Source of the DNA: Chloroflexota bacterium
Lineage (GTDB): Bacteria > Chloroflexota > Limnocylindria > QHBO01
Assembly: GCA_040902225.1 (NCBI GenBank)
Contig: JBBDXT010000002.1
Location: forward strand, 30,036-94,035
Direction of reading: 5' to 3'
Length of the DNA stretch: 64,000 nucleotides
The first letter of the stretch is position 1, and every line of letters starts with the position of its first letter. This document shows, one piece after another, positions 17,508-44,783 of the stretch. A program made the position numbers and the translations under genes. The notes under the pieces are model-generated. The model was not told where the DNA came from, ran no database searches, and was given only the letters and a program-made list of their open reading frames with translations.

Positions 17508-17522
17508 GTGACGGGATACCTG

Positions 17523-23437: not shown

Positions 23438-23802
23438 CCACCCCCTCCGCGCTCGTACGAGCCGGGCACCACCGGCGGCGAGAAGAGGCAGACGAGCTCC
23501 AGGGGCTCGGGTCCGTCCGACTCGGTGGCGTGGAAGGTGCCGACCGGGATGAAGACCGATACGCCCGGCTCGAGCTCCGCGGTCGCCTCTGGCGTCACCA
23601 ACCGGCCCCGACCGGCGATAACGTAGATCGTCTCCTCTTCGGCAGCGTGAACGTGTCCCTCCGGCTTCGAGCCGGGAGGGAAGATCGCCACGCCCACCGA
23701 CACGTTGCGCGCGGGGCTGTTATGCGGCGCGATGTACGTGTACCAGTCCCGTCCGGGGAGCGGGAGGTGCTGAGCCTCTCCGCGGGTGACGCGCTTGATC
23801 AC
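23434..23802 (-). CDS. cupin domain protein
   Basis: 122 aa. Cupin motif 1 PEGHVHAAEEETIYVIAGRG and motif 2 GVSVFIPVGTFH. GTG start 23802. Confidence 0.8.
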   Translation of the reverse strand: MIKRVTRGEAQHLPLPGRDWYTYIAPHNSPARNVSVGVAIFPPGSKPEGHVHAAEEETIYVIAGRGRLVTPEATAELEPGVSVFIPVGTFHATESDGPEPLELVCLFSPPVVPGSYERGGGG

Positions 23803-23900
23803 GCGGGCACCATGAGGATCCGCGGCCCTGGTGCGGTGGTGGTCGTGCGCGTTTCGGTGGTCACGTAACGGTTCTCCTCGGCGTGCTTCCCCTGCCGACG

Positions 23901-24995
23901 TCAGGATGCGCGCGGATCAGGGTCCGGCAGGACGAGGTCACGGACCGCGCCCATGAGGTCGTGGTACGACTTGATGAATGCGCGCAGGGTCCGTGCCGAC
24001 GCGCCGAAGGCCTCGAACTCGTCGGGCGTCATGCCGTCCGGCTCGTAGGCCCGCCGGAAGTCGGGGACCCGCGCGGCCAGCTCGTCGACGATCGCCGGGT
24101 CGACGGGGACCTGCATGCGCGGCTCGGGGCGGATCCCGCTGCGATTGAAGCGAACCTGCCAGGCGTGGGGCATGGTCATGGCAACATCGCCGCCCACCAG
24201 CTCCGTCCAGTGCAGTCGGTGGCGGTAGGCGGCGGCCAGCAGGCGGGGGCGATAGCCGCGCTCCTGGAAGAGCGCATACGCTCGCTTGAAGACGGCGATG
24301 CCGGCCCAGTTCGGAGCCCCTGGATCGAGTGCGATGTCGTCGCGCTCGACGAGGACCTTCACCCAGTCGTCCAGGCGGCCGATCATGAGCGTGCAGATCG
24401 GGGTCAGAGAGCTCGTGTCGTGGCCGGCCCGCTCGCGCCGCTCCAGTCCGCGCCCGACCGCCTCGGCGACCGCGATCGCCTGCGGGAGCGTGAAGTTGAC
24501 GGTGGCGTTGATGTTGATGCCGTGGAAGGTCGCCTCCTCGATGCCGACCATCCCCGCCGCGGTGGCGGGAAACTTCACCAGGAGGTTCGGCGCCAGCCCG
24601 TCGAAGCGGAGCGCCTGCTCCAGCATCCGCTCCGGATCGCGATAGTTGGCCGGGTTGAGCTGCACGGAAAGCCGCCCCTTGCGGCCCCCCTCGCGCTCGA
24701 AAACGGGCTGCAGCACAGCGGCCCCGCGGGCAACCATCTCCTCGACCAGGGCCCACGTCAGGTCCACTTCGCTCCACGTCGAATGGGTCGCGGCGAGCTC
24801 GTGGACGCGGGGTACCCAGTGCGACGCCTCCTTCCTGAGGACCTCGTGTACGATGGTCGGGTTCGATGTCGCACCGGTCGCTCCGCGCTCCACGGCGTAG
24901 GCAAGCTCGTCAACGGCGCACGAGTCGTTCCAGTAGTCAGTCGGCGTGTCCTGGACCATGCGGAGAAGAGGGCTTTCGGTGGCCGCCAGCGTCAT
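23901..24995 (-). CDS. transaldolase family protein (long type)
   Basis: TDYWNDSC, GATGATSNPTIV, active-site-Lys context LLVKFPAT. SD GGAGGGA 5 nt before ATG 24995. Confidence 0.85.
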   Translation of the reverse strand: MTLAATESPLLRMVQDTPTDYWNDSCAVDELAYAVERGATGATSNPTIVHEVLRKEASHWVPRVHELAATHSTWSEVDLTWALVEEMVARGAAVLQPVFEREGGRKGRLSVQLNPANYRDPERMLEQALRFDGLAPNLLVKFPATAAGMVGIEEATFHGININATVNFTLPQAIAVAEAVGRGLERRERAGHDTSSLTPICTLMIGRLDDWVKVLVERDDIALDPGAPNWAGIAVFKRAYALFQERGYRPRLLAAAYRHRLHWTELVGGDVAMTMPHAWQVRFNRSGIRPEPRMQVPVDPAIVDELAARVPDFRRAYEPDGMTPDEFEAFGASARTLRAFIKSYHDLMGAVRDLVLPDPDPRAS

Positions 24996-25058
24996 AGACG
25001 TCCCTCCGGATCTGTTTCACCTGCGAGCGAATGCCATGTTCCGGTGCGCCGCTAATCA

Positions 25059-25069
25059 TCGATTATCGA
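25059..25069. promoter_or_regulatory. operator-like palindrome TCGATTATCGA upstream of the transaldolase operon
   Basis: Exact 11-mer, 64 nt upstream of the transaldolase ATG (24995), in an AT-enriched patch (gctaATCATCGATTATCGATgc). Confidence 0.55.
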
Positions 25070-25104
25070 TGCCCAACTGGCAACAGGGCCATCCGGCCCG
25101 CTTC

Positions 25105-25187
25105 CCGGTGACGAAGAGCACAGGCGACGCCGCTTGACGCGCTTACGCTGGTTCCATATCGTCATTCCATCGACAATCGATTATCGA
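25105..25187 (+). promoter_or_regulatory. promoter cassette A: conserved 17-mer, -35, -10 and TCGA-array operator
   Basis: CCGGTGACGAAGAGCAC (25105-25121), TTGACG (25134-25139), 17-nt spacer, TATCGT (25157-25162), TCGACAATCGATTATCGA (25170-25187). The same order and near-identical boxes recur at 38522-38602. Confidence 0.6.
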
Positions 25188-25559
25188 GGAGCACCCGGCG
25201 GCGCGGTGCGCACCGGCGGCAATCCGCTATGAGAGGTGGAGCATTGCCGATCGCGAGATAGCCGGGCCGCCCAGTTCCAATGGGCGCGCCCACGACGCGC
25301 TGCACGCAAAGGACCAGGGCGAGGCGCCCCCCGGCAGTGGCGAAGGAGATACAGGTAAACGATCGACCGGCACGCATCCGGCCGTCCGCCCCATGCCGGC
25401 GCTCACGAATCAGCCGCGCGCCACGCCATACGCCTTCGGCCGAGCCAGGACGGGCTCACCGCCACGGGCCGGCTCAACGTCGCAACGTCACGCAACCCTG
25501 ACCTCGGCGGGTCCCGGCCGGTCGGAGCCGAGAGCAGACCACACCTGGAGGTGACCTCG

Positions 25560-27341
25560 GTGGCGATCAAGGAAGAAGTCCTCGGCCAGTTCCTCGGGAA
25601 CGAAGAGTTCCCGGTGACCTGGGAATCCGAGACGGAGAGCGAGCTCTTCTGGGTCTACGACGACCTTCACTGCCCCCATCCATTGAGCCCGATGTACTTC
25701 GACATCGGCGGGTGGTGGCTCACCTGTGACCACATGTTCCGCCGCTTCGGGACGCCGTTCGCCTGCGACTGGCTGGCCAAGAACGTCAACGGCTACCTGT
25801 ACACCGCTGCCATTCCGGCCGATCCCGAGTACGCCATCGACGCCATGGAATACCAGGCGCGCTACGTCGCACGAACGCCCCACATGGCCGGCTACCCGGA
25901 GAAGATCGGTGTCTACCTGAACAAGGTGCTGCCCGTCTACGGGCTTCAATTCGCCGATTGGTGGCGCGATCGGCTGGTGCCGGAGATGGACCGCAACTTC
26001 GCCTATCTCGAGAGCCGGCTGGACGAGGCCGACAACATGTCGCTCGCCGAGCTGGCCTGCCTGCTCGAGGACGCGATCGACATCCACGATCGGCACTGGA
26101 AGATCCACTGGATGCTGAACTTCGCCCAGCTGTCGGCCACGCTCAACCTGCGGGCGGTGATGGAGAGGACGCACGGCAAGATCGACGAGGCGCTGCTCGG
26201 CCGGCTGCAGAACTCGGCCAAGGACCGCAACTGGGACTCGATCGAGGCGCTGTGGAGGATGAAGGAGGAGGCCAGGGCGGATTCGGAGCTGGCAGCTGCC
26301 TTCCGGCACGAGACGGCCGGTGACATCCGGACGGCCCTCGAGGCCTCGAACCATGGCCGCCGCTTCATCGCCGAACGCGTCGAGCGCTACCAGAAGGAGT
26401 TCGGCTGGCATGCGGTGTGGAGCCACGAGTTCATCTTCCCGACTGTCCGGGAGCAGATGGAGCCCGTCCTGGAGCTGATCCGCGGCTACATGGAGACCGA
26501 CTACGACTACCCAAAGACGATCAAGGCGGTCGCGGACGACATCGATGCCGCGGCGAAGGAGATCCTGCAGGGCCTCGAGGGCGAGGCGCTCGAGGAGATG
26601 CGCGCCGCCAACGACATCAACCTGCGGATGGCGCCGCTCACGCCGGATCACCACTTCTACATCGACCAGGGAGCCAATGCGCACGTGCGCCTGGTCCTGG
26701 TCGCCATCGGCAAGAAGCTGGTCGCCGACGGCGTCCTCGACCAGCCAGACGACGTGATCATGCTTCGCTACAACGAGCTGCGCGTGCTCCTGGGCGACGC
26801 ATCGGTGCTGGACGGTCGCCCCATCGTGGCGCAGCGTCGCGCGGAGCGGGAGGCGTCGTACCTGAAGCGGCCGAAGGACTGGATCGGCACCGTCACGCAG
26901 TCCCAGCTCGACTTCCCGTACCTGAACCTGTGGGGCTTCCCGGACAAGTTCTACCGCAAGGAGTCGACCGTGGCAGGGGAGGTCACCGGCATCGGCGGCT
27001 CGCCGGGCGTGGTCGAGGGGATCGCGCGCGTGGTGCTCACCGAGGACCAGTTCGACGAGGTCCGCGCCGGCGACATCCTGGTCTGCCAGATGACGAACCC
27101 GGCGTGGGTCGTCCTGTTCACGAAGATCGTGGGTCTGGTGACCGATGCCGGTGGCACGGTTTCGCATCCGGCGGTCCTGTCGCGTGAGTTCGGCATCCCG
27201 GCCGTGATCGGCTCGTCGGTTGCGACACAGCAGATCAAGTCGGGCGACCGGATCCGGGTCGACGGAACGCGGGGCGTGGTCGAGATCCTCGAGACGACGG
27301 GCCCCAAGGCTCCCGCGCCAGAAGCCGAGTTCGTGGCCTGA
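25560..27341 (+). CDS. PpsA-like PEP-utilising (swivelling phosphohistidine) domain protein lacking an ATP-grasp domain
   Basis: ORF 25551..27341. I prefer GTG 25560 because SD GGAG ends at 25550. The C-terminal mobile domain GGTVSHPAVLSREFGIPAV has its His codon at 27165-27167. N-terminal ~450 aa start like phenylphosphate synthase alpha subunits as I recall them (ELFWVYDDLHCPHPLSP). Confidence 0.8.
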   Translation: MAIKEEVLGQFLGNEEFPVTWESETESELFWVYDDLHCPHPLSPMYFDIGGWWLTCDHMFRRFGTPFACDWLAKNVNGYLYTAAIPADPEYAIDAMEYQARYVARTPHMAGYPEKIGVYLNKVLPVYGLQFADWWRDRLVPEMDRNFAYLESRLDEADNMSLAELACLLEDAIDIHDRHWKIHWMLNFAQLSATLNLRAVMERTHGKIDEALLGRLQNSAKDRNWDSIEALWRMKEEARADSELAAAFRHETAGDIRTALEASNHGRRFIAERVERYQKEFGWHAVWSHEFIFPTVREQMEPVLELIRGYMETDYDYPKTIKAVADDIDAAAKEILQGLEGEALEEMRAANDINLRMAPLTPDHHFYIDQGANAHVRLVLVAIGKKLVADGVLDQPDDVIMLRYNELRVLLGDASVLDGRPIVAQRRAEREASYLKRPKDWIGTVTQSQLDFPYLNLWGFPDKFYRKESTVAGEVTGIGGSPGVVEGIARVVLTEDQFDEVRAGDILVCQMTNPAWVVLFTKIVGLVTDAGGTVSHPAVLSREFGIPAVIGSSVATQQIKSGDRIRVDGTRGVVEILETTGPKAPAPEAEFVA

Positions 27342-27354
27342 CCGGCACGCCTCG

Positions 27355-28053
27355 ATGTCCCGAGAGGCCTCGGTCTCGCGCTTGGTGCTGAGCGAACAGG
27401 TCAAGGATCGCCTCCTCCAGGCGATCCTTGACGGACGCTTCCCGCCCGGCGCCCGGATCGTCGAGACGCGCGTCGCGCGCGAGCTCGGCATCAGCCAGGC
27501 GCCGGTGCGGGAGGCTCTGCGCGACCTTCAGGCGCTCGGGCTGGTCGAGGCGTCGGCCTTCCGGGGCGCCCGTGTTCGACGGCCCAGCGCTGAGGAGCTG
27601 CTGGAGGCGTTCGTGGTCCGATCGCAGCTCGAGTCGCTCGCCGCACGACTGGCAGTCACGACCATCACCGACCGCGACGTCGACCAGCTGACCGGGTACC
27701 TCGGCGAGATGCGCCGTGCCGCCCGTGCAGATGATGCTCGCGCCGAGGCGATGGCCGACGCGATGTTCCACGGCCGCCTCATAGAGCTGTCCGGCAACGC
27801 CACGCTGCAGCGCGTGTGGCGCCAGCTTGAGCCGGTGTCGCACACCTACATCACGCTGGTCATTCCGGGAGCCGATCGACATCTGATCGCGGATGTCCAC
27901 CAACCGGTCCTGGACGCGCTCCGCCATCGCGACGCCGCGGGCGCCACGGACGCGCTCGACCGGCACTACCTGTTCCTGGGTGCCATGCTGACCGAGCTGT
28001 GGACGGCCGCTCCCACGACGCACGACCCACTCCTGACCGAAAGGACACGATGA
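27355..28053 (+). CDS. GntR family transcriptional regulator (FCD-type), paralogue 2
   Basis: Start set at ATG 27355 (MSREASVSRLVL). ELGISQAPVREALRDLQALGLVE. Clearly paralogous to 20888..21595 over the full length. Confidence 0.85.
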   Translation: MSREASVSRLVLSEQVKDRLLQAILDGRFPPGARIVETRVARELGISQAPVREALRDLQALGLVEASAFRGARVRRPSAEELLEAFVVRSQLESLAARLAVTTITDRDVDQLTGYLGEMRRAARADDARAEAMADAMFHGRLIELSGNATLQRVWRQLEPVSHTYITLVIPGADRHLIADVHQPVLDALRHRDAAGATDALDRHYLFLGAMLTELWTAAPTTHDPLLTERTR

Positions 28054-28952
28054 ACGTAGTGCCGACCGACGCCTCTCTCCATCTCTCGGAGGAGCTCACC
28101 TGCGGGACGGCCCGCCTTCGCATCGACATCGTCGGCGATGAGCCGCGCGACCATATCCTGGAGGACATGAACTTCCTCAATTACCGCCTGGCGGACGTCC
28201 ACTACGCCGCACAGGTCTCCCTGCCCGAAGCCGATGTCATCTGGCGGGTGGACGGCGACAGGGCGATCGCCTACGACGACAGGCAGATGACGTTCACCGG
28301 CAGCTGGCCGGCCGGACCTCTGCAGAAGGTCGTGGTTGCCATGCTCGCGCTGCGCATGGAGGCGGGAGGTCTGCACCCGTTCCATGCGTCCGCAGTCCGC
28401 TACCGCGACCGCACGATCATGTTCCTGGGTGGCGAGTCGAACCACGGCAAGAGCATGGGACAGATCGAGGCGTGCCGCCGCGGCGGCCTGCTGGTCTCCA
28501 CCGAGACGACGGTCGTGGATGAGGACGGGATGGCGGTGATGGGCTCGAAGGACGTCTTCATCAAGAAGCGAGCGGAGGGAACCGAACGGGCCGACAAGGC
28601 CGCTCCGAACCGCGGCGTGGAGATCTTCTTCGGCGACATGCCCAGCTGGGAGGCATACGAATCGCCAACGAACGTCGACGTGGTGATCGTGCCCGCCATC
28701 GACGGCAACTTCGACCCCAGCCTGGTCGAGATGATCCCGTTTGAACGCCAGTTCCAGACGCTCCACTCGCTGCAGAACTACCTCTTGCTCAACGAGCTGC
28801 TGGCTCCGGGCTGGCCGATGCCGATCATCGACAACGAGGCGCTGCGCCTCGCTCGTGCCGCCTTCGTCGCACGCTTCGCCGAGCGTCCGTACTACTTCGT
28901 CCGCGCTGCGAACCCGCAGGTGCTGATGGACGAGGTGGACCGGGTTCTGTAG
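28050..28952 (+). CDS. HprK C-terminal-domain-like P-loop protein, function unknown
   Basis: Start ATG 28050 (SD gaaagga, ATGA overlap with the GntR stop). P-loop-like FLGGESNHGKSMGQIEACRRGGLLVSTETTVVDEDG (28428-28454 encodes GGESNHGKS). This resembles the HPr kinase/phosphorylase GxSGxGKS...RGxxLVxDD core. Confidence 0.6.
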   Translation: MNVVPTDASLHLSEELTCGTARLRIDIVGDEPRDHILEDMNFLNYRLADVHYAAQVSLPEADVIWRVDGDRAIAYDDRQMTFTGSWPAGPLQKVVVAMLALRMEAGGLHPFHASAVRYRDRTIMFLGGESNHGKSMGQIEACRRGGLLVSTETTVVDEDGMAVMGSKDVFIKKRAEGTERADKAAPNRGVEIFFGDMPSWEAYESPTNVDVVIVPAIDGNFDPSLVEMIPFERQFQTLHSLQNYLLLNELLAPGWPMPIIDNEALRLARAAFVARFAERPYYFVRAANPQVLMDEVDRVL

Positions 28953-28970
28953 GAAGGCGCGCGCCCCACC

Positions 28971-29840
28971 ATGCACCCGTTCCGCTACGCACGCCCGAGC
29001 AGCCTGGCAGAGGCTGTCGCGCTGCTTGACGAGCACGGTCCCCAGGCCCAGATCATCGCCGGCGGCACGGACCTGGTCATCGGGCTGCGGGACCGCACCC
29101 TCGAGCCGGACGTCGTGATCGACCTCAAGCGCATCCCCGACCTCGAGCCGCGCATCCGTCTCGTCGACGGTCGCCTGGTCATCAGCGCCGGGACGGTGAT
29201 GAGCGACATCGAGTCGGACGCGACGATCGCCGAGCTGTTCACGGCCCTGGCCGAGTCGGCGGCCGTGGTCGGTTCGGTGCAGATCCGCAACCGGGCCACC
29301 CTGGCCGGCAACATCTGCAACGCGTCACCGGCCGCGGATACCGCGCCGCCCCTGCTCGTCCACCGGGCCGAGGTGGTGGCGTTCGGCCCCCGTGGCGCGC
29401 GCCGCATCCCGATCCGCGAATTCTTCGTCCGCTCGCGCCAGACGACCCTGCAGCGCGGCGAGCTGGTGACCGCGGTGGAGCTGCCGCTCCCGGACCGACG
29501 GACGGGCGACAGCTACGTGCGTCTGACGCGCCGACGGGGCACCGACCTGGCCTCGATCACGATGTGCTGCGCCGTGGACGCATCGGGCTCGACGCGCCTG
29601 GCCTACGGCAGCGTGGGGCCCAAGCCGCTCGTCTTCGCCGACGAGAGCGGCGTGCTGGCCGACCCGGCCGCGCCGGACGAAGCCAAGGCGCCCATCCTGG
29701 AGACAATGCTGGCCGAGGCATCTCCATCCGCCGGGTCGGTCCGCGCCAGCCCGGAGTATCGCCTGGCCATGCTGCCCGTGCTCGCCATGCGGGCGTTGCA
29801 CACCGCTCTGGGCCGGCTCGGCGGAGGGCAGGTGCGGTGA
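28971..29840 (+). CDS. molybdenum hydroxylase FAD-binding (medium, CoxM-like) subunit
   Basis: FRYARPSSLAEAVALL...IIAGGTDLVIGLRD. ~289 aa as for CoxM/XdhB-type subunits. Confidence 0.9.
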   Translation: MHPFRYARPSSLAEAVALLDEHGPQAQIIAGGTDLVIGLRDRTLEPDVVIDLKRIPDLEPRIRLVDGRLVISAGTVMSDIESDATIAELFTALAESAAVVGSVQIRNRATLAGNICNASPAADTAPPLLVHRAEVVAFGPRGARRIPIREFFVRSRQTTLQRGELVTAVELPLPDRRTGDSYVRLTRRRGTDLASITMCCAVDASGSTRLAYGSVGPKPLVFADESGVLADPAAPDEAKAPILETMLAEASPSAGSVRASPEYRLAMLPVLAMRALHTALGRLGGGQVR

Positions 29841-30313
29841 GCGAGCGGCTTCCGATCGACGTCGGCATCAACGGGCGCCCCCAGCACCTCGACGTTGCCG
29901 CGCACCACACGCTGCTGGAGGTCCTGCGCGATCAGCTGGGACTCACCGGGTCGAAGGAGTGCTGCGTGGTCGGCGAGTGCGGCGCCTGCACGGTCATCGT
30001 CGATGGGCGCACCGTGAACTCCTGCCTCATGCTCGCCGTCGAGGCGGATGGACACGACATCCGCACCGTCGAGGGCCTCGCGCGCGGGCCAGAGCTGAGC
30101 GAGCTGCAGCAGGCGTTCCTCGACCGGGGCGCCACCCAATGCGGTTTCTGCATCCCGGGTCAGCTGATGTCGGCCGAGGCGCTGCTGGAGCGCAACGCGG
30201 ACCCGACCGTGGACGAGATCCACGAGGCGCTGGCCGGCAACCTGTGCCGCTGCGCCGCATACGAGCAGATCACCGATGCCGTCCTGGCCGCCGCCGAGGC
30301 ACGACACCGATGA
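29837..30313 (+). CDS. molybdenum hydroxylase [2Fe-2S] (small, CoxS-like) subunit
   Basis: GTG 29837 (GTGA overlap). Cys motifs CVVGECGACTV...NSC and CGFCIPG...CRC. Confidence 0.9.
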   Translation: MSERLPIDVGINGRPQHLDVAAHHTLLEVLRDQLGLTGSKECCVVGECGACTVIVDGRTVNSCLMLAVEADGHDIRTVEGLARGPELSELQQAFLDRGATQCGFCIPGQLMSAEALLERNADPTVDEIHEALAGNLCRCAAYEQITDAVLAAAEARHR

Positions 30314-32574
30314 CCGGAATCGTCGGCCAGTCGCCGCGGCGCGGAGGTGGGCATGGACGGGTGACCGGGCTGCAGCAATACGTCGCGGACATCCATCTGC
30401 CGGACATGCTCCACGCCCGGTTGGTCACCCTCGACACGGCCCACGCGCGCATCGTCTCGATCGATCCGGCGGAGTCGCGACGCGTGCCCGGCGTCCACCT
30501 GGTGCTCACCGCCGCCGATCTGCCACAGCCAGTGCCCCGCTTCGGTCCGCAATTCGCCGACCGGCCGGTGATCGCGGTCGACGAGGTGAAGTACCACGGC
30601 GAGCCGGTGGCGGCGATCGCCGCCGAGAGCAAGGATGCGGCCGAGGAGGCGGCACGGCTGGTGCGGGTCGAGGTCGAGGAGCTGCCAGCGGTGTTCACCA
30701 TCGCCGCCGCCCTGGCGCCGGACGCCCCGCTCGTCCAGGATCCGTCGCTGCGCCCCAACGATCCGCTGGCGGGCACCAACCTGCTGCGTGAGCACCGGTA
30801 TGCATGGGGTGACGTGAACACCGCGCAGGCTGACCTCGTCGTAGAGGACACCTACACCTTCCCGATGGTCACCCACTTCGCGATCGAGCCGCATGGCTTC
30901 ATCGCGGCCCCCGACGGCGACGGCATCGCCATCTGGAGCTCGATTCAGCATCCGTTCTGGCTGCAGCGGACAATCGCCAAGATCCTGGGGCTGCCGCTCT
31001 CCAAGGTGCGCGTGCTGGCGCCCGATCCGGGCGGGGCGTTCGGGGGCAAGCAGCACGCCAAGTTCGAGCCGCTGGTCGCGTTCATGGCCCTCCGCACCGG
31101 GCGCCCGGTGCGCCTCATCCTCAGCCTGGAGGAGACGTTCCAGGCGGTGCGGCGCAACTCGTCCGAGATCCGCGTGCGCACGGGCTTCCGCACCGACGGC
31201 ACCGTGACCTTCCGCGAGATCGAGGCCAACTACCTGCTGGGGGCCTACGCGGATATCTCCGATCGCGTGGTGGGCAAGGGTGCATACCCGGGCAACGGCC
31301 CGTATCGCGTGCCGGCCTCGCAGATCGTGGCGCGCTCCATCCTGTCGCACACCCCGCCATCCACCGCGTTCCGCGGCTTCGGCGCACCGCAGGTCAACTG
31401 GGCGGTGGAGTCCAACCTTGACGAAGCTGCGCGGCAGCTCGGTATCGACGGGCTGGAGATCCGGCTGCGCAACCTCGCCCGCCAGGGCGAGCGGTTCATC
31501 CCCACTGACCTGCCCGCCGACGGGGATTGGCAGCAGGCAGTCCGCCGCGCCGCCGAGCTCATCGGCTGGGCGGATCCCGTCGCGGCGGGCCGTGGCCGCG
31601 GCATCGCGGTCGGCATCAAGCTGGGACCTACGACCGGGCTGTCGTATGCCACCGTCCGGTTCCTGGGCGACGGGAGCCTGCTGGTCTATACCGGCACCTC
31701 GGACATGGGGCAGGGGGCGCGCACGATCTTCGCGCAGATCGCCGCCCAGGAGTTGGGCGTCCCAATGGAGCGGATCAACGTCATCACCGGCGACACCTTC
31801 GCGGTGCCATACGACCAGCAGACGTCCGCCAGCCGATCCAGCGTGCTGATGGGCAATGCCGTCCTGGACGCCTGCCACCAGATCCAGCGCCAGCTGGCGA
31901 CCATGGCGGCCCGCCTGCACGACGTCGACCCGGCGGCGGTCCTCGTCGCGAGCGGGACGGCCAGCGTGTCGGGACGGGAGATTCCGCTGGTCGAGATCCT
32001 CATCGAGGGCCTTGGCCGGCTCGGCGGCGAGCTCATCGGCAACGGCATGGCGCGCAAGGAGGGCGAGCCGGGCCATCCGCTGGGTGGATCGGCTGCCTTC
32101 TACGAATTCAACTGCACGGCGATCGAGGCCGAGGTCGACCCCGAGACCGGCGAGATCCTGCTGCATCGCCATGTGACCGTGTCGGACGTCGGCAAGGCCC
32201 TCAACCCGCTCCAGGTCCGGATGCAGGACGAGGGCGCCGCGATCATGGGGCTCGGTCACACGCTCATGGAGCACTACATCTTCGACGATGCCGGGCGGGT
32301 CAGAAACCTGGGCGCCATCGACTACCGCATCCCCACCAGCAAGGATCTGCCGCTCGAGATGGTGAGCGACATGGTGGAGAACGAGGACGGGCCGGGACCG
32401 TACGGCGCGAAGGGCATGAGCGAGGGCGCGCTGCTGTGCGTCGCCGCAGCGGTCGCAGCGGCGGTCCACGGCGCAACCGGCGTCGTCATTCGCGACCTGC
32501 CGCTCACGCCGCAACGGGTCTGGGAAGCACTCGAGGAGCGGCGAGGGGCGCCGGAGAGGGAGGTCGCGTCATGA
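30310..32574 (+). CDS. molybdenum hydroxylase molybdopterin-binding (large, CoxL/XdhA-like) subunit
   Basis: ATG 30310 (ATGA overlap). GRVTGLQQYVADI, AFRGFGAPQ, C-terminal YGAKGMSEGA with the catalytic-Glu context. The N-terminal part of ORF 29959..32574 is an out-of-frame artefact. Confidence 0.9.
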   Translation: MTGIVGQSPRRGGGHGRVTGLQQYVADIHLPDMLHARLVTLDTAHARIVSIDPAESRRVPGVHLVLTAADLPQPVPRFGPQFADRPVIAVDEVKYHGEPVAAIAAESKDAAEEAARLVRVEVEELPAVFTIAAALAPDAPLVQDPSLRPNDPLAGTNLLREHRYAWGDVNTAQADLVVEDTYTFPMVTHFAIEPHGFIAAPDGDGIAIWSSIQHPFWLQRTIAKILGLPLSKVRVLAPDPGGAFGGKQHAKFEPLVAFMALRTGRPVRLILSLEETFQAVRRNSSEIRVRTGFRTDGTVTFREIEANYLLGAYADISDRVVGKGAYPGNGPYRVPASQIVARSILSHTPPSTAFRGFGAPQVNWAVESNLDEAARQLGIDGLEIRLRNLARQGERFIPTDLPADGDWQQAVRRAAELIGWADPVAAGRGRGIAVGIKLGPTTGLSYATVRFLGDGSLLVYTGTSDMGQGARTIFAQIAAQELGVPMERINVITGDTFAVPYDQQTSASRSSVLMGNAVLDACHQIQRQLATMAARLHDVDPAAVLVASGTASVSGREIPLVEILIEGLGRLGGELIGNGMARKEGEPGHPLGGSAAFYEFNCTAIEAEVDPETGEILLHRHVTVSDVGKALNPLQVRMQDEGAAIMGLGHTLMEHYIFDDAGRVRNLGAIDYRIPTSKDLPLEMVSDMVENEDGPGPYGAKGMSEGALLCVAAAVAAAVHGATGVVIRDLPLTPQRVWEALEERRGAPEREVAS

Positions 32575-33455
32575 CCGCAGCCGACATCGGTCCGGTGGCC
32601 AGGCTGCCAGCCGATCAGCTTGTCCGCGCCGCCCGCCTGGTGCGGAGCGGCCGCATGCTCTCGCTGGCCGCTGTGCGCTATCCGGGCATGCCGCTCTTCC
32701 CGGGACACCCGCCCTTCCAGGTCCTCAACTACCGCACGCCGCGCGGCATTCGGGTCGCCGGGGCCCAGCCCTGGGGGCCTGTGAACGATGCGGGGTTGGG
32801 GTACATGGCCGAGTACGTCATGGCCACCAGCCACTCGGGGGCGCACATCGACGCGCTGGCCCACATGACGGTCGGCGACGATATGCACTGGTATGGTGGC
32901 AGCGCCGACGCGCACCTGGGTGACTCCGGCCCAACATTGAACGACGCGTCGAGCCTGCCGCCATTCTTCACCCGTGGCGTCCTGTTGGATGCGGCCGCGC
33001 ATCGCGGGGTCGCCTGCCTGCCCAAGGGATCAGCGATCGACGCGACTGAGCTGGAGGCGATTGCCTCGGCCCAGCGGGTATCGGTCGAGCGGTGGGACGT
33101 GGTCGTCATTCGCACCGGGTACATGAGCCTTTGGCCGGACGCCGATGCCATGGCCGAACACAAGACCCCGGGGCCCGATCTGTCGGCCGCGCAATGGCTG
33201 CTCGAACGCGGCGTGATCGCCACCGGGACCGATACCGAGACCTACGAGGTCCAGCCGGCGCCCGACCCCGGGCCGACCGGCAATCCGCAGCCGGTCCACA
33301 CGCTGCTCCTCATCGAGAACGGCATCTACCTGATGGAGAGCCTCGATCTCGAGGCGCTGGCACGCGAGCACATGTACGAGTTCCTGTTCGTCGCCCTGCC
33401 GCTGAAGATCCGAGGCGCCACCGGATCAATGGTGGACCCCGTGGCCGTCGTCTAG
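32571..33455 (+). CDS. cyclase family protein (kynurenine formamidase / isatin hydrolase-like fold)
   Basis: ATG 32571 (ATGA overlap). Metal motif HSGAHIDALAH. ~294 aa. Only the last third of ORF 31527..33455 is real. Confidence 0.85.
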   Translation: MTAADIGPVARLPADQLVRAARLVRSGRMLSLAAVRYPGMPLFPGHPPFQVLNYRTPRGIRVAGAQPWGPVNDAGLGYMAEYVMATSHSGAHIDALAHMTVGDDMHWYGGSADAHLGDSGPTLNDASSLPPFFTRGVLLDAAAHRGVACLPKGSAIDATELEAIASAQRVSVERWDVVVIRTGYMSLWPDADAMAEHKTPGPDLSAAQWLLERGVIATGTDTETYEVQPAPDPGPTGNPQPVHTLLLIENGIYLMESLDLEALAREHMYEFLFVALPLKIRGATGSMVDPVAVV

Positions 33456-33479
33456 GCCCTTGCCCGAAAGGATGCTGGC

Positions 33480-35600
33480 GTGACTTACCTCTACCCGTTC
33501 GACCATCCGCATGCCCTGCCGTTGCCGGACCTGAACAGGCTGATCGGCAGCAAGGCGGCCGGCCTGAGCACGATGGTCACCGCGCTGAGGCTGCCGGTCC
33601 CGCCGGGATTCACCATCGCTACCACCGCCTGCACCGACTTCCTGGCCGGCGGCTGGCCCGACGGCCTGGAGGAGGAGGTACGGGCGCAGATGCGGCGCGT
33701 CGAGCAGGCCGTGGACCGGCGGTTCGGCGCGGCCGACGATCCGCTGCTCGTGAGCGTGCGCTCTGGTGCCCCGGCGTCGATGCCGGGCATGATGGACACC
33801 ATCCTCAACCTGGGCCTCAACCAGGTCACGATGGCCGGACTGGCGCGCGCGGCGGGCGACCCAGCGTTCGCCGCCGGCTGCCTTGCCCGCTTCACGACGA
33901 TGTATCGCGCAATCGTTGGGGAGAACGAGGTGCCGGTTGATCCATGGGACCAGCTGCGCGCCGCCATCGCTGCCGTCTTCGCCTCGTGGAACAGCGAACG
34001 TGCGAGCAGCTACCGGCGGCACGAGGGAATCCCTGACCATCTCGGTACTGCGGTCACCGTGCAGGCGATGGTCTTCGGCAACCTGGGGGCCGATTCCGGC
34101 ACCGGCGTGCTGTTCACCCGCAACCCCGCCACCGGCGAGGCGACCTTCTACGGCGACGTCATGTTTAACGCGCAGGGCGAAGACGTGGTTGCCGGCGACC
34201 ATCGCACCGAGCCGATCAGCGTGCTCGACGATCGCATGCCCGACGTCGCCCGCCAGCTGCGCGGACACGCCATCGCGTTGGAGCGCCATTTCGCCGACCT
34301 GTGCGACATCGAGTTCACGATCGAACGCGGCCGGTTGTGGATGCTGCAGGTGCGGGTCGGCAAGCGCAGCCCGCAGGCCGCGCTGCGCATCGCGGTCGAC
34401 ATGGCCGAGGATCCGAATTTCCCGGTCACGCGAGCCGAGGCGGTGCAGCGCGTGCTGCCCCTGCTGGGCGACCCACCCCGCCTGCAGGTCGAGCACCCAA
34501 GCGGGGTCGAGGCGGTGGCTGCCGGGTTGGGCGCATCTCCGGGGATCGCGTGCGGCGAGATCGTTATCTCGGCCGACGATGCGGTTGCGGCCGCTGAGGC
34601 TGGGCGCCGCGTCATCTTGGTTCGGGCCGAAACGTCTCCCGATGACGTGCACGGCATGGCCAAGTCGGCGGGCATCCTTACCGCCAGCGGGGGCCTGGCC
34701 AGCCACGCGGCGGTCGTCGCGCGTGGCTGGGGCCTTCCGGCCGTGGTCGGGGCTGAGGCGGTGCGCATCACGGCCGGCGAGGTCCGCATCGGCGATCGCG
34801 CGTTCGCGGTCGGCGACACGATCACCATCGACGGCAGCAGCGGCGAGGTGTTCGCCGGCGAGGTGGCCGGCGCGCAGGAGGTGGTTGCGGAGGCCGCGAT
34901 CCTGCAGGCCTGGGCGCGTGAGCTGGGCCTTGGGATCCAGCTCGCGGAGGGAGGAGCTTCGGCGCCGGCGGTAAGCGGATCCCTCGTGCGTGAGGACGTG
35001 TTGCGAACGCTGCTCATCAAGGCCTACGCCACTCCGGAGGTGCTTGCCGCCTGCATGTTCTCGACGCCCGAGCAGGCGGCCGACTTGCTCGATCGCCTGG
35101 TGGCCGATGGCCTGCTCGAAATCTCGGCTGGCGCCTTTCGGCTGACCGCCGACGGCAAGGCCGCGGCCGCGGAGCTGGTGGCCGACGACGGCGAGCGCTG
35201 GGGAGCCGACGAGGCTGTCGCGGCGCTCGATGCCTTCCTGAGGCTCGACGGCCGGGTGAAGGAGGCGGTGACCGCTTGGCAGATGCGCGACGTGGACGGC
35301 GCGCAGACGTTGAATGACCACAGTGACGCCGCGTACGACCGCAGCGTGCTCGATCGGCTTGCCGCGTTGCATACCGACGTCGTCGCATGGCTCCACCCGC
35401 TCACCACGCGCCTCGACCGGCTGGCCGCGTATGAAGCCCGCCTTCAGCGCGCCGCGGACTGCGCGCGCGACGGCGATACCGCCTACATCGCATCACCCCG
35501 CGTGGACAGCTACCACAGCGTCTGGTTCGAGCTTCACGAGGACCTCATCCGGCTCGCCGGCCGGACGCGAACTGACGAAGTGGCGGCGGGACGGGCCTAG
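33480..35600 (+). CDS. PPDK-like protein: ATP-grasp plus phosphohistidine domains, no PEP/pyruvate TIM barrel, novel C-terminal ~220 aa
   Basis: LIGSKAAGLS, SVRSGAPASMPGMMDTILNLGLN, DIEFTIERGRLWMLQVRVGKR. GGLASHAAVVARGWGLPAV has its His codon at 34704-34706. Motifs of the PPDK C-terminal domain as I recall them (CRTEH-like, GSNDL-like) are absent. Confidence 0.85.
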   Translation: MTYLYPFDHPHALPLPDLNRLIGSKAAGLSTMVTALRLPVPPGFTIATTACTDFLAGGWPDGLEEEVRAQMRRVEQAVDRRFGAADDPLLVSVRSGAPASMPGMMDTILNLGLNQVTMAGLARAAGDPAFAAGCLARFTTMYRAIVGENEVPVDPWDQLRAAIAAVFASWNSERASSYRRHEGIPDHLGTAVTVQAMVFGNLGADSGTGVLFTRNPATGEATFYGDVMFNAQGEDVVAGDHRTEPISVLDDRMPDVARQLRGHAIALERHFADLCDIEFTIERGRLWMLQVRVGKRSPQAALRIAVDMAEDPNFPVTRAEAVQRVLPLLGDPPRLQVEHPSGVEAVAAGLGASPGIACGEIVISADDAVAAAEAGRRVILVRAETSPDDVHGMAKSAGILTASGGLASHAAVVARGWGLPAVVGAEAVRITAGEVRIGDRAFAVGDTITIDGSSGEVFAGEVAGAQEVVAEAAILQAWARELGLGIQLAEGGASAPAVSGSLVREDVLRTLLIKAYATPEVLAACMFSTPEQAADLLDRLVADGLLEISAGAFRLTADGKAAAAELVADDGERWGADEAVAALDAFLRLDGRVKEAVTAWQMRDVDGAQTLNDHSDAAYDRSVLDRLAALHTDVVAWLHPLTTRLDRLAAYEARLQRAADCARDGDTAYIASPRVDSYHSVWFELHEDLIRLAGRTRTDEVAAGRA

Positions 35601-35616: not shown

Positions 35617-36672
35617 TCAGGGAGCGACGATGATCTTGATGGCCCCGCTGGATCGGTCGTTGAAGGTCGCAATCGCCTCCCCGTAGCGGCTCAGGGGGAA
35701 GCGATGCGTGATCATCTCGCTGACGCGCATCCGCCCCTGCTCCACGTGGGGCATCACGCGGCGCATCTCTCCCGCCGAGGCGCGGGAGCCGACCAGCTCC
35801 AGTTCATCGAGCACGAGCTTCTGCACGTCGATCTCGGCCGACGCGGTCGGGATGCCCACGGCGGCACAACGGCCGCCGCGGCGCAGCATGGCCATCGCCC
35901 ACGCCATGGTCTGCGGCACGCCGGCGCATTCGAGCACGACGTCCGCGCCCAGGCCACCGGTCATGTCGCGCACGGCCGGCACCGGAACGCCGGCGTCGGA
36001 GTCGATGGTCTCGAAGCCAAGGCCCGCCGCCTTCGCCAGCCGCTGGCCGCGACCTACCACGATCACCCGCGCGGCGCCGCGAATGAGCGCCGCATCGCCC
36101 GCCAGCAGGCCGATGGCGCCGGCACCGGTGATGGCGACTGTGTCGCCCGGGCTCACCAGGCCGCGATTCGCCACGTGCAGCGCGATGGAGGCGGGATCGA
36201 TCAGCGCCCCCTGCTCGAAGGTCAGCGCGTCGGGCAGGCGGAAGACGCACTTCACGCCGTGGACCACGTAGGTCGCGTCGGCCCCCTGGTAGTTGTGCCC
36301 GTACTGGCGGTGCAGCCCCTGCTTGCCGTAGTTCTCGCACAGGTTGTAGTGGCCCTCGACGCACTTCTGGCAGACACCACAGGCGTCGTGCGAGGTGCCG
36401 GCCACGCGATCGCCGACCTTCCAGCCCAGCCGGTCGGCGTCCGACCCCAGCGCCGCGACCTCCCCCGCCCACTCATGGCCCGGGATGAAGGGAAAGGCAG
36501 GCGGCCAGAAACCCGGATAGTCGCCGTGGATCAGGTGCGCATCGGTCCCGCAGATGGAGACCGCCCGAACACGCGCCAGGACCTCATTGGGTCCGGGCTC
36601 GGGGACCGGCACCTCCTGGATCTCGAAGCGCTCGGGCGCGAGCACGACGAGCGCTTCCATGGTGGATGCCAC
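35617..36672 (-). CDS. zinc-dependent alcohol dehydrogenase (MDR superfamily)
   Basis: ICGTDAH, GHEWAGEV, structural-Zn Cys cluster CGVCQKC...C, GAGAIGLL. Start GTG 36672 (SD AGGAG 6 nt upstream) or ATG 36660. The upstream part of ORF 35617..37050 is rejected. Confidence 0.85.
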   Translation of the reverse strand: MASTMEALVVLAPERFEIQEVPVPEPGPNEVLARVRAVSICGTDAHLIHGDYPGFWPPAFPFIPGHEWAGEVAALGSDADRLGWKVGDRVAGTSHDACGVCQKCVEGHYNLCENYGKQGLHRQYGHNYQGADATYVVHGVKCVFRLPDALTFEQGALIDPASIALHVANRGLVSPGDTVAITGAGAIGLLAGDAALIRGAARVIVVGRGQRLAKAAGLGFETIDSDAGVPVPAVRDMTGGLGADVVLECAGVPQTMAWAMAMLRRGGRCAAVGIPTASAEIDVQKLVLDELELVGSRASAGEMRRVMPHVEQGRMRVSEMITHRFPLSRYGEAIATFNDRSSGAIKIIVAP

Positions 36673-36716
36673 GACGGTCTCCTTCCGGTGGGCCGAGGTC
36701 ACGCCTCGGCAGCTCC

Positions 36717-37583
36717 TCAGCGGCCTGCCGGGACGGCGGTCAGCTTGTCGTAGAGCGATCCGGCGTTCAGCGTCTGGATGTGCTCCATCATGTAGCCCTG
36801 GCCGACGTCGACCGGGTAGCGATCGGCGAAGTTCACCCGTGCGATCGTCTCCTCGCGTGTCCAGCCCTTGGCAACGGCGGCGGCGACGGCCGCCTTCCAT
36901 TCGAGCAGCACCGAGCGCTGCGTGTCGAGGTAGCGGGTGGTGGTGACCGGGCCGTGCCCTGGCACGAGGTGGTCCACGTCCAGCGCCTTGATCCGATCCA
37001 GCGCCTCGAGCCATTGCTCCACGTTCGAGGTCATGAGCCAGGTCTGGCACTCGTTGAAGACGGTGTCACCGGTGAAGACGACGCGCTCCTCCGGCACGTG
37101 GACGGCGAGCTGGCCGGGCGTGTGACCCGGCGTGTGGAGCAGCCGGAAGGTGTGGTCGCCGACCCGCAGGGTCACGTCGCCGGTGAACACGATCGTGCCC
37201 TTGTTCGGATCGGCATAGTAGGCGTCCCGCTCCGGGAACAGGGTGGCGCCATCGGGGTCATCGGTTGGGATGGCCTCCCTGGCGTACTCGAACGGGTCCA
37301 GGTCCCGACCGGGAACCATGAAGTTGTCGTACAGGCCCTGGTGGTTGACGACCGTGCCGGCGCCCTTGAAGAAGTAGTTGCCGAAGATGTGGTCGACGTG
37401 GTGCTCGGTGTTGATCAGATACCGGATCGGCCCCTTTGACTCCGCCTCCCGGCGCATCGCCACCGCCCGGGTGGGCAGCTGCGGCGTGTCGATGACGACG
37501 ACGCCATCGGTGGTGGTCACGTAGCTCGGATTGCAGCCGCGCTGGGTCGTGTCGGTGCAGACGTTGTCCGTCACGCGCTCCAT
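36717..37583 (-). CDS. MBL-fold metallo-hydrolase
   Basis: NTEHHVDHIFG (HxHxDH), LLHTPGHTPG, VPGHG. Confidence 0.85.
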   Translation of the reverse strand: MERVTDNVCTDTTQRGCNPSYVTTTDGVVVIDTPQLPTRAVAMRREAESKGPIRYLINTEHHVDHIFGNYFFKGAGTVVNHQGLYDNFMVPGRDLDPFEYAREAIPTDDPDGATLFPERDAYYADPNKGTIVFTGDVTLRVGDHTFRLLHTPGHTPGQLAVHVPEERVVFTGDTVFNECQTWLMTSNVEQWLEALDRIKALDVDHLVPGHGPVTTTRYLDTQRSVLLEWKAAVAAAVAKGWTREETIARVNFADRYPVDVGQGYMMEHIQTLNAGSLYDKLTAVPAGR

Positions 37584-37600
37584 GTGCCAGCTCCTCGTTG

Positions 37601-38431: not shown

Positions 38432-38440
38432 GGCTTATCA

Positions 38441-38479
38441 TCGATTATCGAGGATAGGGATTGTCCTTTATCCAGTCAA
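38441..38479 (-). promoter_or_regulatory. candidate promoter plus operator for the SDR-MBL-ADH operon
   Basis: The minus strand reads TTGACT (38479-38474), a 17-nt spacer, TATCCT (38456-38451), with TCGATAATCGA (38451-38441) sharing the last T of the -10. This is the same architecture as the E1 promoter. Confidence 0.55.
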
Positions 38480-38521
38480 CTCGAATCCGTCCCCTGGTCG
38501 ACGGGCCGTTCAGCCCCCGTG

Positions 38522-38602
38522 CCGGTGACGAAGAGCACGGGATTTCGGAGTCTTGACTGGCCTAACAGGAGCGCCTATCGTCGATCGACAATCGATTATC
38601 GA
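38522..38602 (+). promoter_or_regulatory. promoter cassette B: conserved 17-mer, -35, -10 and TCGA-array operator
   Basis: CCGGTGACGAAGAGCAC (38522-38538), TTGACT (38553-38558), 17-nt spacer, TATCGT (38576-38581), TCGATCGACAATCGATTATCGA ending at 38602. It lies upstream of the ABC importer operon. Confidence 0.6.
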
Positions 38603-38792
38603 GGACCCGAGCTGCCCCCGTCCCGAGCCAGTCGGGTCGATAGCCCGCAGCGTGGAGAGATGTCCTGTGCCGAGGCCGACACCCATCGGGATGGGGAGAG
38701 AGCAGGACGCTGGACGAACGACGACGAAACGTCCGTACGTGTGCACACCTAATGGCGTGACGCCACCCCGCCCCAGGCAAGGGTGACGGCTG

Positions 38793-39665: not shown

Positions 39666-39669
39666 TGAC

Positions 39670-42113: not shown

Positions 42114-42151
42114 TGACCCACCCATTGGCGCAGGACACAGGAGGAGGAACA

Positions 42152-44754: not shown

Positions 44755-44783
44755 CGGTCGGGCGAGTCTAGCAGCCCGGCTCG

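Follow-up and report, generated by a model that had tools for sequence, protein, structure and literature searches.

Why should genes for two dikinase-like proteins be kept in one operon with a three-subunit molybdenum hydroxylase? The question is raised by positions 25560-35600 of a 64,000-nucleotide stretch of the Chloroflexota contig JBBDXT010000002.1 (this whole stretch, with a G+C content of ~70%, is hereafter called the window). The list of open reading frames and their translations gives eight tightly packed genes there, named g1 to g8 in this text, all running in the same direction on the + strand. Neighbouring genes overlap at ATGA 28050 (g2/g3), GTGA 29837 (g4/g5), ATGA 30310 (g5/g6) and ATGA 32571 (g6/g7), and the remaining intergenic gaps in the operon are 13, 18 and 24 nt. 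A first-pass annotation of the same DNA had described eight co-directional genes with four ATGA/GTGA junctions, all of which were found where it had placed them, and the motifs that it cited all occur in the translations, including GGTVSHPAVLSREFGIPAV in g1 and AFRGFGAPQ in g6. The eight-gene operon was confirmed as real and strongly conserved, and with dozens of species-level genomes carrying the same set of genes the arrangement is far above chance.

The system encoded here is a variant of the known but barely understood dikinase-dependent molybdenum hydroxylase, and it reaches both prokaryotic domains. Regarding its function, we see an even chance that the operon forms the centre of a catabolic regulon under GntR control, that the substrate is a small compound with a hydroxyl group (phenolic, N-heterocyclic or enolic) and that phosphorylation by the dikinase precedes the molybdenum step.

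Domain composition of the dikinase-like proteins

The first gene, g1 (25560..27341, +), encodes a dikinase component of the HpeH/PpsA/CreH type, with a substrate-binding domain like that of rifampin phosphotransferase (RPH) and a phosphohistidine swivel domain, without an ATP-grasp. Its only Pfam match was PEP-utilizers (residues 505-575 of 596 aa); PPDK_N was not matched, and neither Pfam nor sequence comparison found any similarity to an ATP-grasp in g1, its N-terminal region included. In the precomputed Pfam assignments of g1 homologues Rph_4th stands ahead of the PEP-utilizers swivel domain, and a PDB search aligned residues 380-581 to rifampin phosphotransferase. Among the NCBIfam models, those of PRK08296 ('hypothetical protein') aligned over the full length of g1, and those of RPH-like phosphoenolpyruvate (PEP) synthases, RedH and PigC aligned with their post-ATP-grasp part to residues 148-584. 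All NCBIfam scores were far under the cut-offs (172 bits against a cut-off of 578 for the curated PRK08296 subfamilies), which sets g1 apart as a distinct subfamily. The swivel motif TDAGGTVSH carries His539 (numbered from a start at 25551), 57 residues from the C-terminus; Thr531, Gly534, Gly535 and His539 are invariant among homologues, and the RPH-like ligand-binding region has a mean column identity of 85% in the homologue alignment. The RPH-type domains, the invariant T/SxxGGxxxH motif and the absence of an ATP-grasp together identify g1 as the predicted substrate-binding and phosphohistidine component of a two-component small-molecule dikinase, in a subfamily of its own. This agrees with the first-pass annotation, which had seen in g1 a swivel domain of the phenylphosphate synthase type without an ATP-grasp.

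For the start of g1, GTG 25560 was preferred over the first in-frame GTG at 25551, because a conserved GGAGG (25547-25551) lies 8 nt upstream of the former and homologues begin with MAxKEE. Homologues that are 70-97% identical occur in metagenome-assembled genomes of Chloroflexota (Limnocylindria), Dormibacteria and Actinomycetota; identity is 48% in Thermomicrobium roseum and 35-44% in archaea.

The last gene, g8 (33480..35600, +), encodes a truncated pyruvate, phosphate dikinase (PPDK) of 706 aa, in which PPDK_N and PEP-utilizers are followed by an extra C-terminal domain. The PEP/pyruvate TIM barrel (PEP-utilizers_C) was not matched by Pfam, as the first-pass annotation had also concluded. 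Residues 1-480 are PPDK-like and matched PPDK structures at 1e-121 in a PDB sequence search, the structural model aligned with C. symbiosum PPDK over 522 columns at 42% identity (Foldseek), and residues 21-468 exceeded the cut-off of the truncated-PPDK family NF004531/PRK05878 (NCBIfam). The protein also has a swivel motif of its own, TASGGLASH409, which is invariant among homologues. Examined as a possible pyruvate/PEP enzyme, g8 lacks any domain for that substrate pair; we rejected it as a bona fide PPDK because the barrel is missing and residues 480-706 form an unrelated domain.

That C-terminal domain (~200 aa) gave only sub-threshold winged-helix-like matches against Pfam and PDB. In the AF2 model (pLDDT 82) a winged-helix-like unit (H-H-H-beta-beta) and, after it, long helices make up residues 504-706; a Foldseek search with the complete g8 model returned mostly PPDK and was uninformative on this part. 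The domain is strongly conserved and contains the invariant His/Asp/Glu motifs NDHxDxxYD and DSYHxVWFELHEDL. Stand-alone homologues are labelled MarR or 'transcriptional regulator' in some PGAP records, and on plasmids of Diaphorobacter and M. avium the domain is a separate gene of ~200 aa (35-38% identity), which indicates that g8 joins two proteins that are encoded separately elsewhere as members of a multi-gene kinase module. As no ATP-grasp of the PpsB/HpeI type was found elsewhere in the window, g8 carries the sole ATP-grasp near g1. The first-pass annotation had regarded g1 and g8 as complementary parts of a split dikinase. This holds in so far as only g8 supplies an ATP-grasp, but 'complementary halves' is too simple a description, since g8, unlike PpsB and HpeI, has its own His409 and an extra domain.

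The two plasmid loci (Diaphorobacter, L085 9311-14111; M. avium, L086 11929-18184) each contain a four-gene module without a molybdenum enzyme, composed of a PEP-utilizing enzyme, a truncated PPDK, the ~200-aa homologue of the g8 C-terminal domain and a conserved hypothetical protein of ~300 aa. The module adjoins Rieske or P450 oxygenase genes. The ~300-aa hypothetical proteins of the two plasmids share 35% identity and have no relation to g3.

Molybdenum hydroxylase, cyclase and orphan P-loop protein

Between the two dikinase-like genes lie the three subunit genes of the molybdenum enzyme: g4 (28971..29840, +) for a CoxM/XdhB-type FAD-binding medium subunit (FAD_binding_5 and CO_deh_flav_C), g5 (29837..30313, +) for a small subunit with two [2Fe-2S] clusters (Fer2 and Fer2_2) and g6 (30310..32574, +) for a molybdopterin large subunit of the XDH family (Ald_Xan_dh_C and MoCoBD_1/2). 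All of these Pfam domains scored above their cut-offs, in line with the three-subunit XDH/CoxMSL-type hydroxylase that had been proposed from the AFRGFGAPQ motif. This motif, the catalytic Glu (GAKGMSEG) and the Gln (SSIQHP) of g6 align with 4-hydroxybenzoyl-CoA reductase (4-HBCR), Kdh and Qor. The best PDB match of g6 was the alpha subunit of 4-HBCR (1rm6_A, 1e-99), followed by Kdh (7dqx) and Qor (1t3q); g6 also scored against the archaeal glyceraldehyde dehydrogenase alpha model of NCBIfam, and the best NCBIfam matches of g5 were XdhC-type.

The 4-HBCR of Thauera aromatica (HcrCAB, 1rm6) is thus the closest match of g6 in both PDB and NCBIfam (~38% identity by eye), but the FAD subunit of that enzyme has a defining Cys-rich [4Fe-4S] insertion that g4 does not have. 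With 289 aa and three Cys, g4 matched the TIGR03195 model of NCBIfam in pieces and below the cut-off. The assignment of g4-g6 as a 4-hydroxybenzoyl-CoA reductase was rejected on the missing insertion and on scores under the equivalog cut-offs, and the enzyme is treated here as a putative ordinary oxidative hydroxylase/dehydrogenase of the XDH family.

The cyclase-family metal hydrolase g7 (32571..33455, +) matched Cyclase (PF04199) with 86 bits against a cut-off of 23.1, and its HxGxHxDxxxH motif reads HSGAHIDALAH. The best PDB match was 5ibz, an uncharacterised protein (2e-23), with isatin hydrolase as a weak match.

The remaining two genes are g2 (27355..28053, +), a transcription regulator with the Pfam domains GntR and FCD, which the first-pass annotation had included in its correct count of eight genes but had never named, and g3 (28050..28952, +), an orphan P-loop protein of 300 aa. 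Sequence searches of Pfam, NCBIfam and PDB assigned g3 to no family and returned only noise such as encapsulin at E 0.03, and Hpr_kinase_C and the HprK-related NCBIfam models were not matched at E <= 0.01. Among the best 120 of 2799 homologues, all were 'hypothetical' or unnamed and none had a Pfam domain. The AF2 model of g3, of moderate quality (pLDDT 75), matched ATP-PEPCK at E 2e-6 with a TM of ~0.45, and HprK/P at about 1e-4 to 1e-3 (Foldseek). A P-loop, GGESNHGKS, is present; all members of the close family share the Walker A sequence FLGGESNHGKS, and in the wider family alignment only the apparently chimeric P0402 departs from GK[ST]. We take the pattern H-x-S-A-V...F-L-G-G-E-S-N-H-G-K-S to resemble the Walker A region of HprK. 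The earlier description of g3 as HprK-like is consequently supported by the modelled PEPCK/HprK-like fold and by the Walker A motif, but not as membership of the HprK family by sequence.

A profile of the g3 family searched against 1.84 billion representative proteins gave 199 matches, mostly fragments, and reached neither HprK nor PEPCK nor any other known family. The members came from Gaiellaceae, WOR-3, Thermotogota, a Nitrososphaerales archaeon and the cultured Thermococcus sibiricus and its relatives, so that g3 appears by sequence to be a narrow orphan family spanning both prokaryotic domains. A 205-aa hypothetical protein of T. roseum and the ~300-aa hypothetical proteins of the Diaphorobacter and M. 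avium plasmids were compared with g3 and are not homologues.

Conservation of the gene set in related genomes

A scan with one genome per species gave 535 relatives of g1, of which the best 80 were almost all from uncultured Chloroflexota. The loci were probed by tblastn with the window proteins, only those 42 loci being counted in which g1 is flanked by 9 kb or more on each side, and a gene was regarded as co-localised if it lay within 10 kb of g1. CoxM, CoxS and CoxL were found in 100% of the 42 loci, g8 in 95%, a GntR gene in 88% and g3 in 83%. An MBL hydrolase and a transaldolase-family protein were each present in 64% and an SDR in 57%; lower frequencies were obtained for the cyclase and a Zn-ADH (48%, always together), a cupin and a split transketolase (36-40%) and the LIV-type ABC transporter (14-21%). 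The order of the genes is shuffled in the related loci, with g8 often divergent from g1. Given that the genes stay together in spite of this shuffling, the linkage seems to be kept by selection and not by simple inheritance. The cyclase g7, present in only 48% of the loci and always alongside the Zn-ADH, is an accessory member of the system.

A pair of genes for a Tm-1-like ATP-binding protein (UPF0261) and a PEP-hydrolase-family protein was observed in T. roseum (L084 7490-9593) and in 11-13 related loci (e.g. L003 7865-9952), with 70-76% identity between T. roseum and the Limnocylindria loci. The pair often lies between the transporter and g1 and does not occur in the window. One locus labelled 'uncultured Steroidobacteraceae' (CAYXZN010000001.1) contains a g1 that is 86% identical and is syntenic with the Chloroflexota-type loci, which could be due to mis-binning or to recent transfer.

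More distant relatives extend the association. On the megaplasmid of T. roseum the g1 orthologue is found with genes for XDH-family molybdenum, FeS and FAD subunits, a cyclase, a GntR regulator and a LIV-type transporter, as well as FAH, ABM and VOC genes and a 323-aa PPDK_N-only protein. The latter matches the ATP-grasp domains of RPH and PEP synthase, and the 387-aa PDB chain 9goj_A at 2e-58. In a Nitrososphaerales archaeon (L087/L088, 1-11860) the g1 homologue lies inside a CoxM-CoxS-g1-CoxL operon; a divergent g3 homologue is followed immediately by a PPDK_N-only gene, and SCP2 is also divergent. A subsurface-metagenome contig (L089) has the order HMGL-like, g1, g3, cupin. Contigs like Thermococcus sibiricus (L090/L091, 1050-19860) carry a g1 homologue (35%), a g3 homologue (38%) and a PPDK_N-only gene, together with cyclase, cupin, UPF0261, HMGL-like, DUF169 and TPP-E1/E2 genes, and here two tungsten-type AFOR genes and a ferredoxin gene stand in place of the XDH-family enzyme. 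In both the Nitrososphaerales and the Thermococcus loci the g3 homologue is within 2-3 kb of the g1 homologue. Hence the association of g1 and g3 with an ATP-grasp recurs in both Bacteria and Archaea, and the partner that supplies the ATP-grasp can be exchanged, a bare domain in some lineages and a PPDK fusion in others. The redox enzyme nearby is mostly Mo-XDH, with W-AFOR in Thermococcus. The non-orthologous replacement by a PPDK_N-only protein in T. roseum, Nitrososphaerales and Thermococcus indicates that g1 depends on its partner for the ATP-grasp. Literature searches on the Thermococcus cluster and on such a set of genes in Chloroflexi returned nothing relevant.

The Nitrososphaerales loci also have a second CoxMSL set adjacent to the first and a PTE-family hydrolase gene nearby.

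Comparison with characterised systems

The nearest characterised counterpart is the 3hpd cluster of Ensifer adhaerens HP1, which encodes the XDH-family 3-hydroxypyridine dehydrogenase HpdA1-4, the PPDK-like orf9 and orf10, a PEP-utilizing mobile subunit (Wang et al., bioRxiv 10.1101/2020.01.08.898148). Conversion of 3-hydroxypyridine (3HP) needs both orf9 and orf10, and a knock-out of either abolishes growth on 3HP; orthologous clusters occur in Actinobacteria, Rubrobacteria and Thermoleophilia (same reference). The window shares with 3hpd an XDH-family molybdenum hydroxylase next to PPDK-like and PEP-utilizing genes, a GntR regulator and an ABC transporter. It adds g3, the fusion of PPDK with a winged-helix-like domain, and the transaldolase-family, transketolase, MBL and SDR genes. 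The coupling that characterises 3hpd is seen in the related loci as co-localisation of g1 with CoxMSL (100%) and with g8 (95%), so that the linkage of the two dikinase-like genes to the molybdenum genes, which the first-pass annotation had left to be checked in other genomes, is borne out. Its statement that no characterised pathway has this gene combination does not hold, since the Ensifer hydroxylase requires adjacent PPDK-like and PEP-utilizing genes.

The second group of counterparts consists of the two-component dikinases PpsAB (phenylphosphate synthase of Thauera), CreHI (C. glutamicum), HpeHI (Rhodococcus) and AcvAB, which phosphorylate a phenolic hydroxyl as the first catabolic step, via a pyrophospho- and then a phosphohistidine on the swivel domain (Dexter et al. 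2025, PMC12167813). The T/SxxGGxxxH signature was defined for HpeH, CreH, PpsA and RPH; in the Hpe pathway the next enzyme takes only the phospho-compound, and a phosphatase acts later (PMC12167813). The two-component dikinases were recognised as a subfamily only recently, and the reason for starting catabolism with a costly conversion of ATP to AMP is described as unresolved (PMC12167813). PpsA, CreH and HpeH resemble g1 in the RPH-like substrate domain, in the T/SxxGGxxxH swivel near the C-terminus, in an ATP-grasp supplied in trans and in the catabolic context. The ATP-grasp partners differ: PpsB and HpeI are ATP-grasp only and PEP-synthase-like (~320-370 aa), whereas g8 has 706 aa, is PPDK-like and has its own swivel and an extra domain. 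A bare partner like PpsB or HpeI is found in T. roseum, Nitrososphaerales and Thermococcus (the PPDK_N-only proteins) but not in the window. The next enzyme is a molybdenum hydroxylase in the window and a carboxylase or P450 in the characterised dikinase pathways. The conserved third protein g3 is unrelated to PpsC, which we take to be a CBS-domain protein.

Among single-chain enzymes, RPH, PigC and RedH combine an ATP-grasp with substrate-binding and swivel domains; the alignment with g1 covers the central and C-terminal parts of these proteins, g1 having no N-terminal ATP-grasp, and the context of g1 hints at neither antibiotic resistance nor pigment synthesis. The actinobacterial truncated PPDK (NF004531/PRK05878) is like g8 in having ATP-grasp and swivel domains and no PEP/pyruvate domain, and g8 adds the ~200-aa C-terminal domain to this plan. 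Mycobacterium tuberculosis Rv1127c belongs to this truncated type, and we know of no established function for the family, the mycobacterial 'ppdK' included. HprK/P and ATP-PEPCK, finally, are like g3 in the fold of the model but unlike it at the sequence level, where g3 belongs to neither family, and the structural similarity is limited to a TM of ~0.45.

Proposed mechanism and alternative explanations

From these comparisons we infer a route in which phosphorylation comes before the molybdenum step. ATP would be bound in the PPDK-type ATP-grasp of g8, and its beta-phosphate would move to His539 of g1, either directly or via His409 of g8. The g1 swivel would bring the phosphate to the RPH-like pocket, where a hydroxyl of the substrate would be phosphorylated, with a net conversion of ATP to AMP and Pi or PPi. 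A third, auxiliary or regulatory, kinase component may be provided by g3, which is co-inherited with g1. The molybdenum enzyme g4-g6 would then hydroxylate the phosphorylated compound or depend on the phosphorylation, with 3-hydroxypyridine dehydrogenase as the parallel, and the variable enzymes (cyclase and Zn-ADH, MBL and SDR, the transaldolase-family protein, cupin and split transketolase) would carry the product toward central metabolism. The candidate substrates that were considered, on no more than hints from the gene families, are 3-hydroxypyridine, phenolics, lactones or pyrones, ketones of the acetoin/acetone type and enols derived from sugars.

Several observations weigh against this route. 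As predicted from its sequence, g8 is unlike every characterised ATP-grasp component: it resembles PPDK and carries both a swivel His and a winged-helix-like domain, so that its role could be other than the loading of g1. The 3hpd study detected no phosphorylated intermediate and left the role of the dikinase open (bioRxiv 10.1101/2020.01.08.898148). The 3hpd cluster has a fourth subunit (SRPBCC) and maleamate-pathway genes, no matches to which were found in the eight operon genes and the scanned neighbours, and g1, g8 and g6 are likened to Orf10, Orf9 and HpdA1 by description and not by sequence. The co-occurrence data come mostly from one clade (Limnocylindria and relatives), in which synteny is partly shared ancestry. 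In Thermococcus, moreover, the redox neighbours are of the tungsten AFOR family, and the redox step common to all lineages could be aldehyde oxidation rather than ring hydroxylation.

The first-pass annotation had proposed the reverse order, in which the molybdenum enzyme hydroxylates the substrate, the dikinase phosphorylates the new hydroxyl and the cyclase opens the ring. All parts for such a pathway are present, a new enolic or phenolic hydroxyl is a chemically reasonable dikinase substrate, and the cyclase family includes ring and amide hydrolases such as isatin hydrolase, the weak match of g7. The characterised two-component dikinases, however, start their pathways (PpsAB, CreHI and HpeHI all phosphorylate first), 3hpd hydroxylation fails without the dikinase genes, and a cyclase that is missing from 52% of the loci and always travels with the Zn-ADH is not an obligatory third step; this order is accordingly quite unlikely. 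Neither do we favour the idea that g8 is a plain pyruvate, phosphate dikinase next to the molybdenum genes by coincidence, which is scarcely credible: g8 does pass the NF004531 cut-off and JGI names its homologues 'pyruvate, orthophosphate dikinase', but a protein with an unrelated domain in place of the PEP-utilizers_C barrel, which remains co-localised with g1 and CoxMSL in 95% of otherwise shuffled loci, does not fit that description.

A different role for the dikinase-like proteins would be to control or mature the molybdenum enzyme, as a phosphorelay or regulatory device, with g8 as the sensor, the winged helix as its output domain and g3 as an HprK-like protein kinase/phosphorylase acting on the swivel domain, much as PDRP acts on PPDK. 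The winged-helix topology of the g8 C-terminal domain and the regulator names given to its stand-alone homologues point in this direction, as do the similarity of the g3 fold to HprK/P, itself a protein kinase/phosphorylase, and the lack of a detected phospho-intermediate in 3hpd. On the other hand, g1 retains a long and very highly conserved RPH-like ligand-binding region, other lineages pair it with a bare ATP-grasp that lacks the winged helix, the regulatory Thr two residues before the His is absent (Val in g1, Ala in g8), and invariant His, Asp and Glu residues are unusual for a plain DNA-binding domain, all of which makes a regulatory device rather unlikely. We give a similarly low probability to an explanation in which the redox enzyme is an aldehyde oxidoreductase and the kinase module acts on a small carbonyl or enol compound. 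A ketone might, for example, be converted to an enol phosphate and then undergo a PEPCK-like (g3) or HMGL-like carboxyl or aldol step, with E1/E2, ADH, SDR and the transketolase and transaldolase-family proteins handling C2-C4 fragments. The combination of g1, g3 and ATP-grasp with two AFOR-family enzymes, HMGL-like, cupin and E1/E2 genes in Thermococcus would be explained in this way, and so would the order HMGL-like, g1, g3, cupin in the subsurface contig, the position of PEPCK as the best structural match of g3, the presence of E1/E2, ACS, ADH and SDR genes nearby in the window and the score of g6 against the archaeal glyceraldehyde dehydrogenase alpha. To our knowledge, aldehyde oxidation is also the only well-known activity common to the XDH and AFOR families. 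Against it, g6 is closest to the ring-acting 4-HBCR alpha, Kdh and Qor, E1/E2 are linked in only 7-10% of the Limnocylindria loci, and where substrates of RPH-family dikinases are known, they are larger aromatic or polyketide molecules, modified at a hydroxyl.

Returning to the route with early phosphorylation, a broader form of it is possible, if doubtful: g1, an interchangeable ATP-grasp and g3 may make up an unrecognised three-component phosphotransfer system that hands a phosphorylated substrate to a molybdenum XDH-type enzyme in aerobes or a tungsten AFOR-type enzyme in anaerobes. If true, hydroxylation or oxidation by the molybdenum or tungsten enzyme would be 'phosphorylation-gated', which as a class of mechanism has yet to be described, and such gating would also explain why 3-hydroxypyridine dehydrogenase requires a dikinase. 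Whatever the mechanism, the coupling of a dikinase to a molybdenum hydroxylase is not a curiosity of one plasmid, as it is a tightly conserved trait of uncultured lineages that abound in soil and peat (Limnocylindria, Dormibacteria) and reaches archaea. The new parts are the orphan P-loop family of g3 and the C-terminal domain fused to the truncated PPDK, both unstudied, and the existence of cultured carriers (the T. roseum megaplasmid and Thermococcus sibiricus) makes the question experimentally tractable.

Control region and regulon

The control region of g1 (25055..25188, +) contains an operator-like site A, ATCATCGATTATCGAT (25055-25070), a -35-like TTGAC (25134-25138), a -10-like ATATCGT (25156-25162) and an operator-like site B, ATCGACAATCGATTATCGAG (25169-25188). 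The palindrome-like motif ATCGATTATCGA had 8 matches in the window, compared with 0.1 expected. The region that separates g1 from the transaldolase-family gene contains two copies, as does the one that separates the SDR and ABC transporter genes, and a site with one mismatch (19862-19873) is found at the 3' end of a metallophosphoesterase gene, just upstream of the E1 gene. The motif also occurs upstream of g1 in many related loci. In an alignment of five loci the operator and promoter elements and the ribosome-binding site were conserved and the rest of the g1 leader varied. Among close relatives this leader (25189-25559, ~370-390 nt) differs in both length and sequence, and it had no Rfam match; a scan of the whole window likewise gave no Rfam family, and so no Moco riboswitch, and no tRNA.

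The control regions of g1 (25055-25188) and of the ABC transporter (38437-38605) are paralogous over ~170 nt, both having site A, TTGAC, ATATCGT and then site B just downstream of the -10-like box. The shared ATCGATTATCGA motif ties the g1 operon to the transaldolase-family/cupin/transketolase operon, the ADH/MBL/SDR operon and the LIV-type transporter. Based on its domains, g2 is likely the repressor acting at the ATCGATTATCGA sites; whether these are assigned to g2 or to a second GntR regulator is a matter of inference.

The divergent operon (21615..24995, -), which shares its operator region with g1, consists of the transaldolase-family gene (23901-24995), a cupin gene (23434-23802) and a split transketolase (22559-23437 and 21615-22562), as assigned by Pfam and NCBIfam. 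The same databases identified in the convergent operon (35617..38431, -) a Zn-ADH (35617-36660), an MBL-fold hydrolase (36717-37583) and an SDR (37601-38431). Beyond it, a second operator/promoter region (38440-38602) precedes the LIV-type ABC transporter, the two together spanning 38440..43534 (+), with two permeases, two ATPases and a 507-aa Peripla_BP_6 protein.

On the other side, the region 16269..21595 (mixed strands) comprises genes for a lipoyl E2 (16269-17522, -), a TPP-E1 (17523-19853, -), the metallophosphoesterase (19856-20749, -) and the second GntR/FCD regulator (20750-21595, +). It probably belongs to the same regulon, although the link is weak in Limnocylindria, with E1/E2 in 7-10% of the loci; the two genes also recur in the Thermococcus cluster.

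Other genes in the window

The stretch 43603-50361 contains genes for an acyl-CoA dehydrogenase (-), an ABC transporter (a TOBE-domain ATPase, SBP_bac_8 and two permeases) and a class-III aminotransferase, which appear unrelated to the operon. Upstream of the regulon lies a Bat-like 'aerotolerance' operon (7242-14213, +) with a MoxR-type AAA_3 ATPase, DUF58, BatA/VWA and a large VWA protein. A further gene for a VWA-domain protein stands beside one for an AAA_5 ATPase (52708-56403, -), a pair that we take to be reminiscent of the CoxE/CoxD-type maturation factors of molybdenum enzymes.

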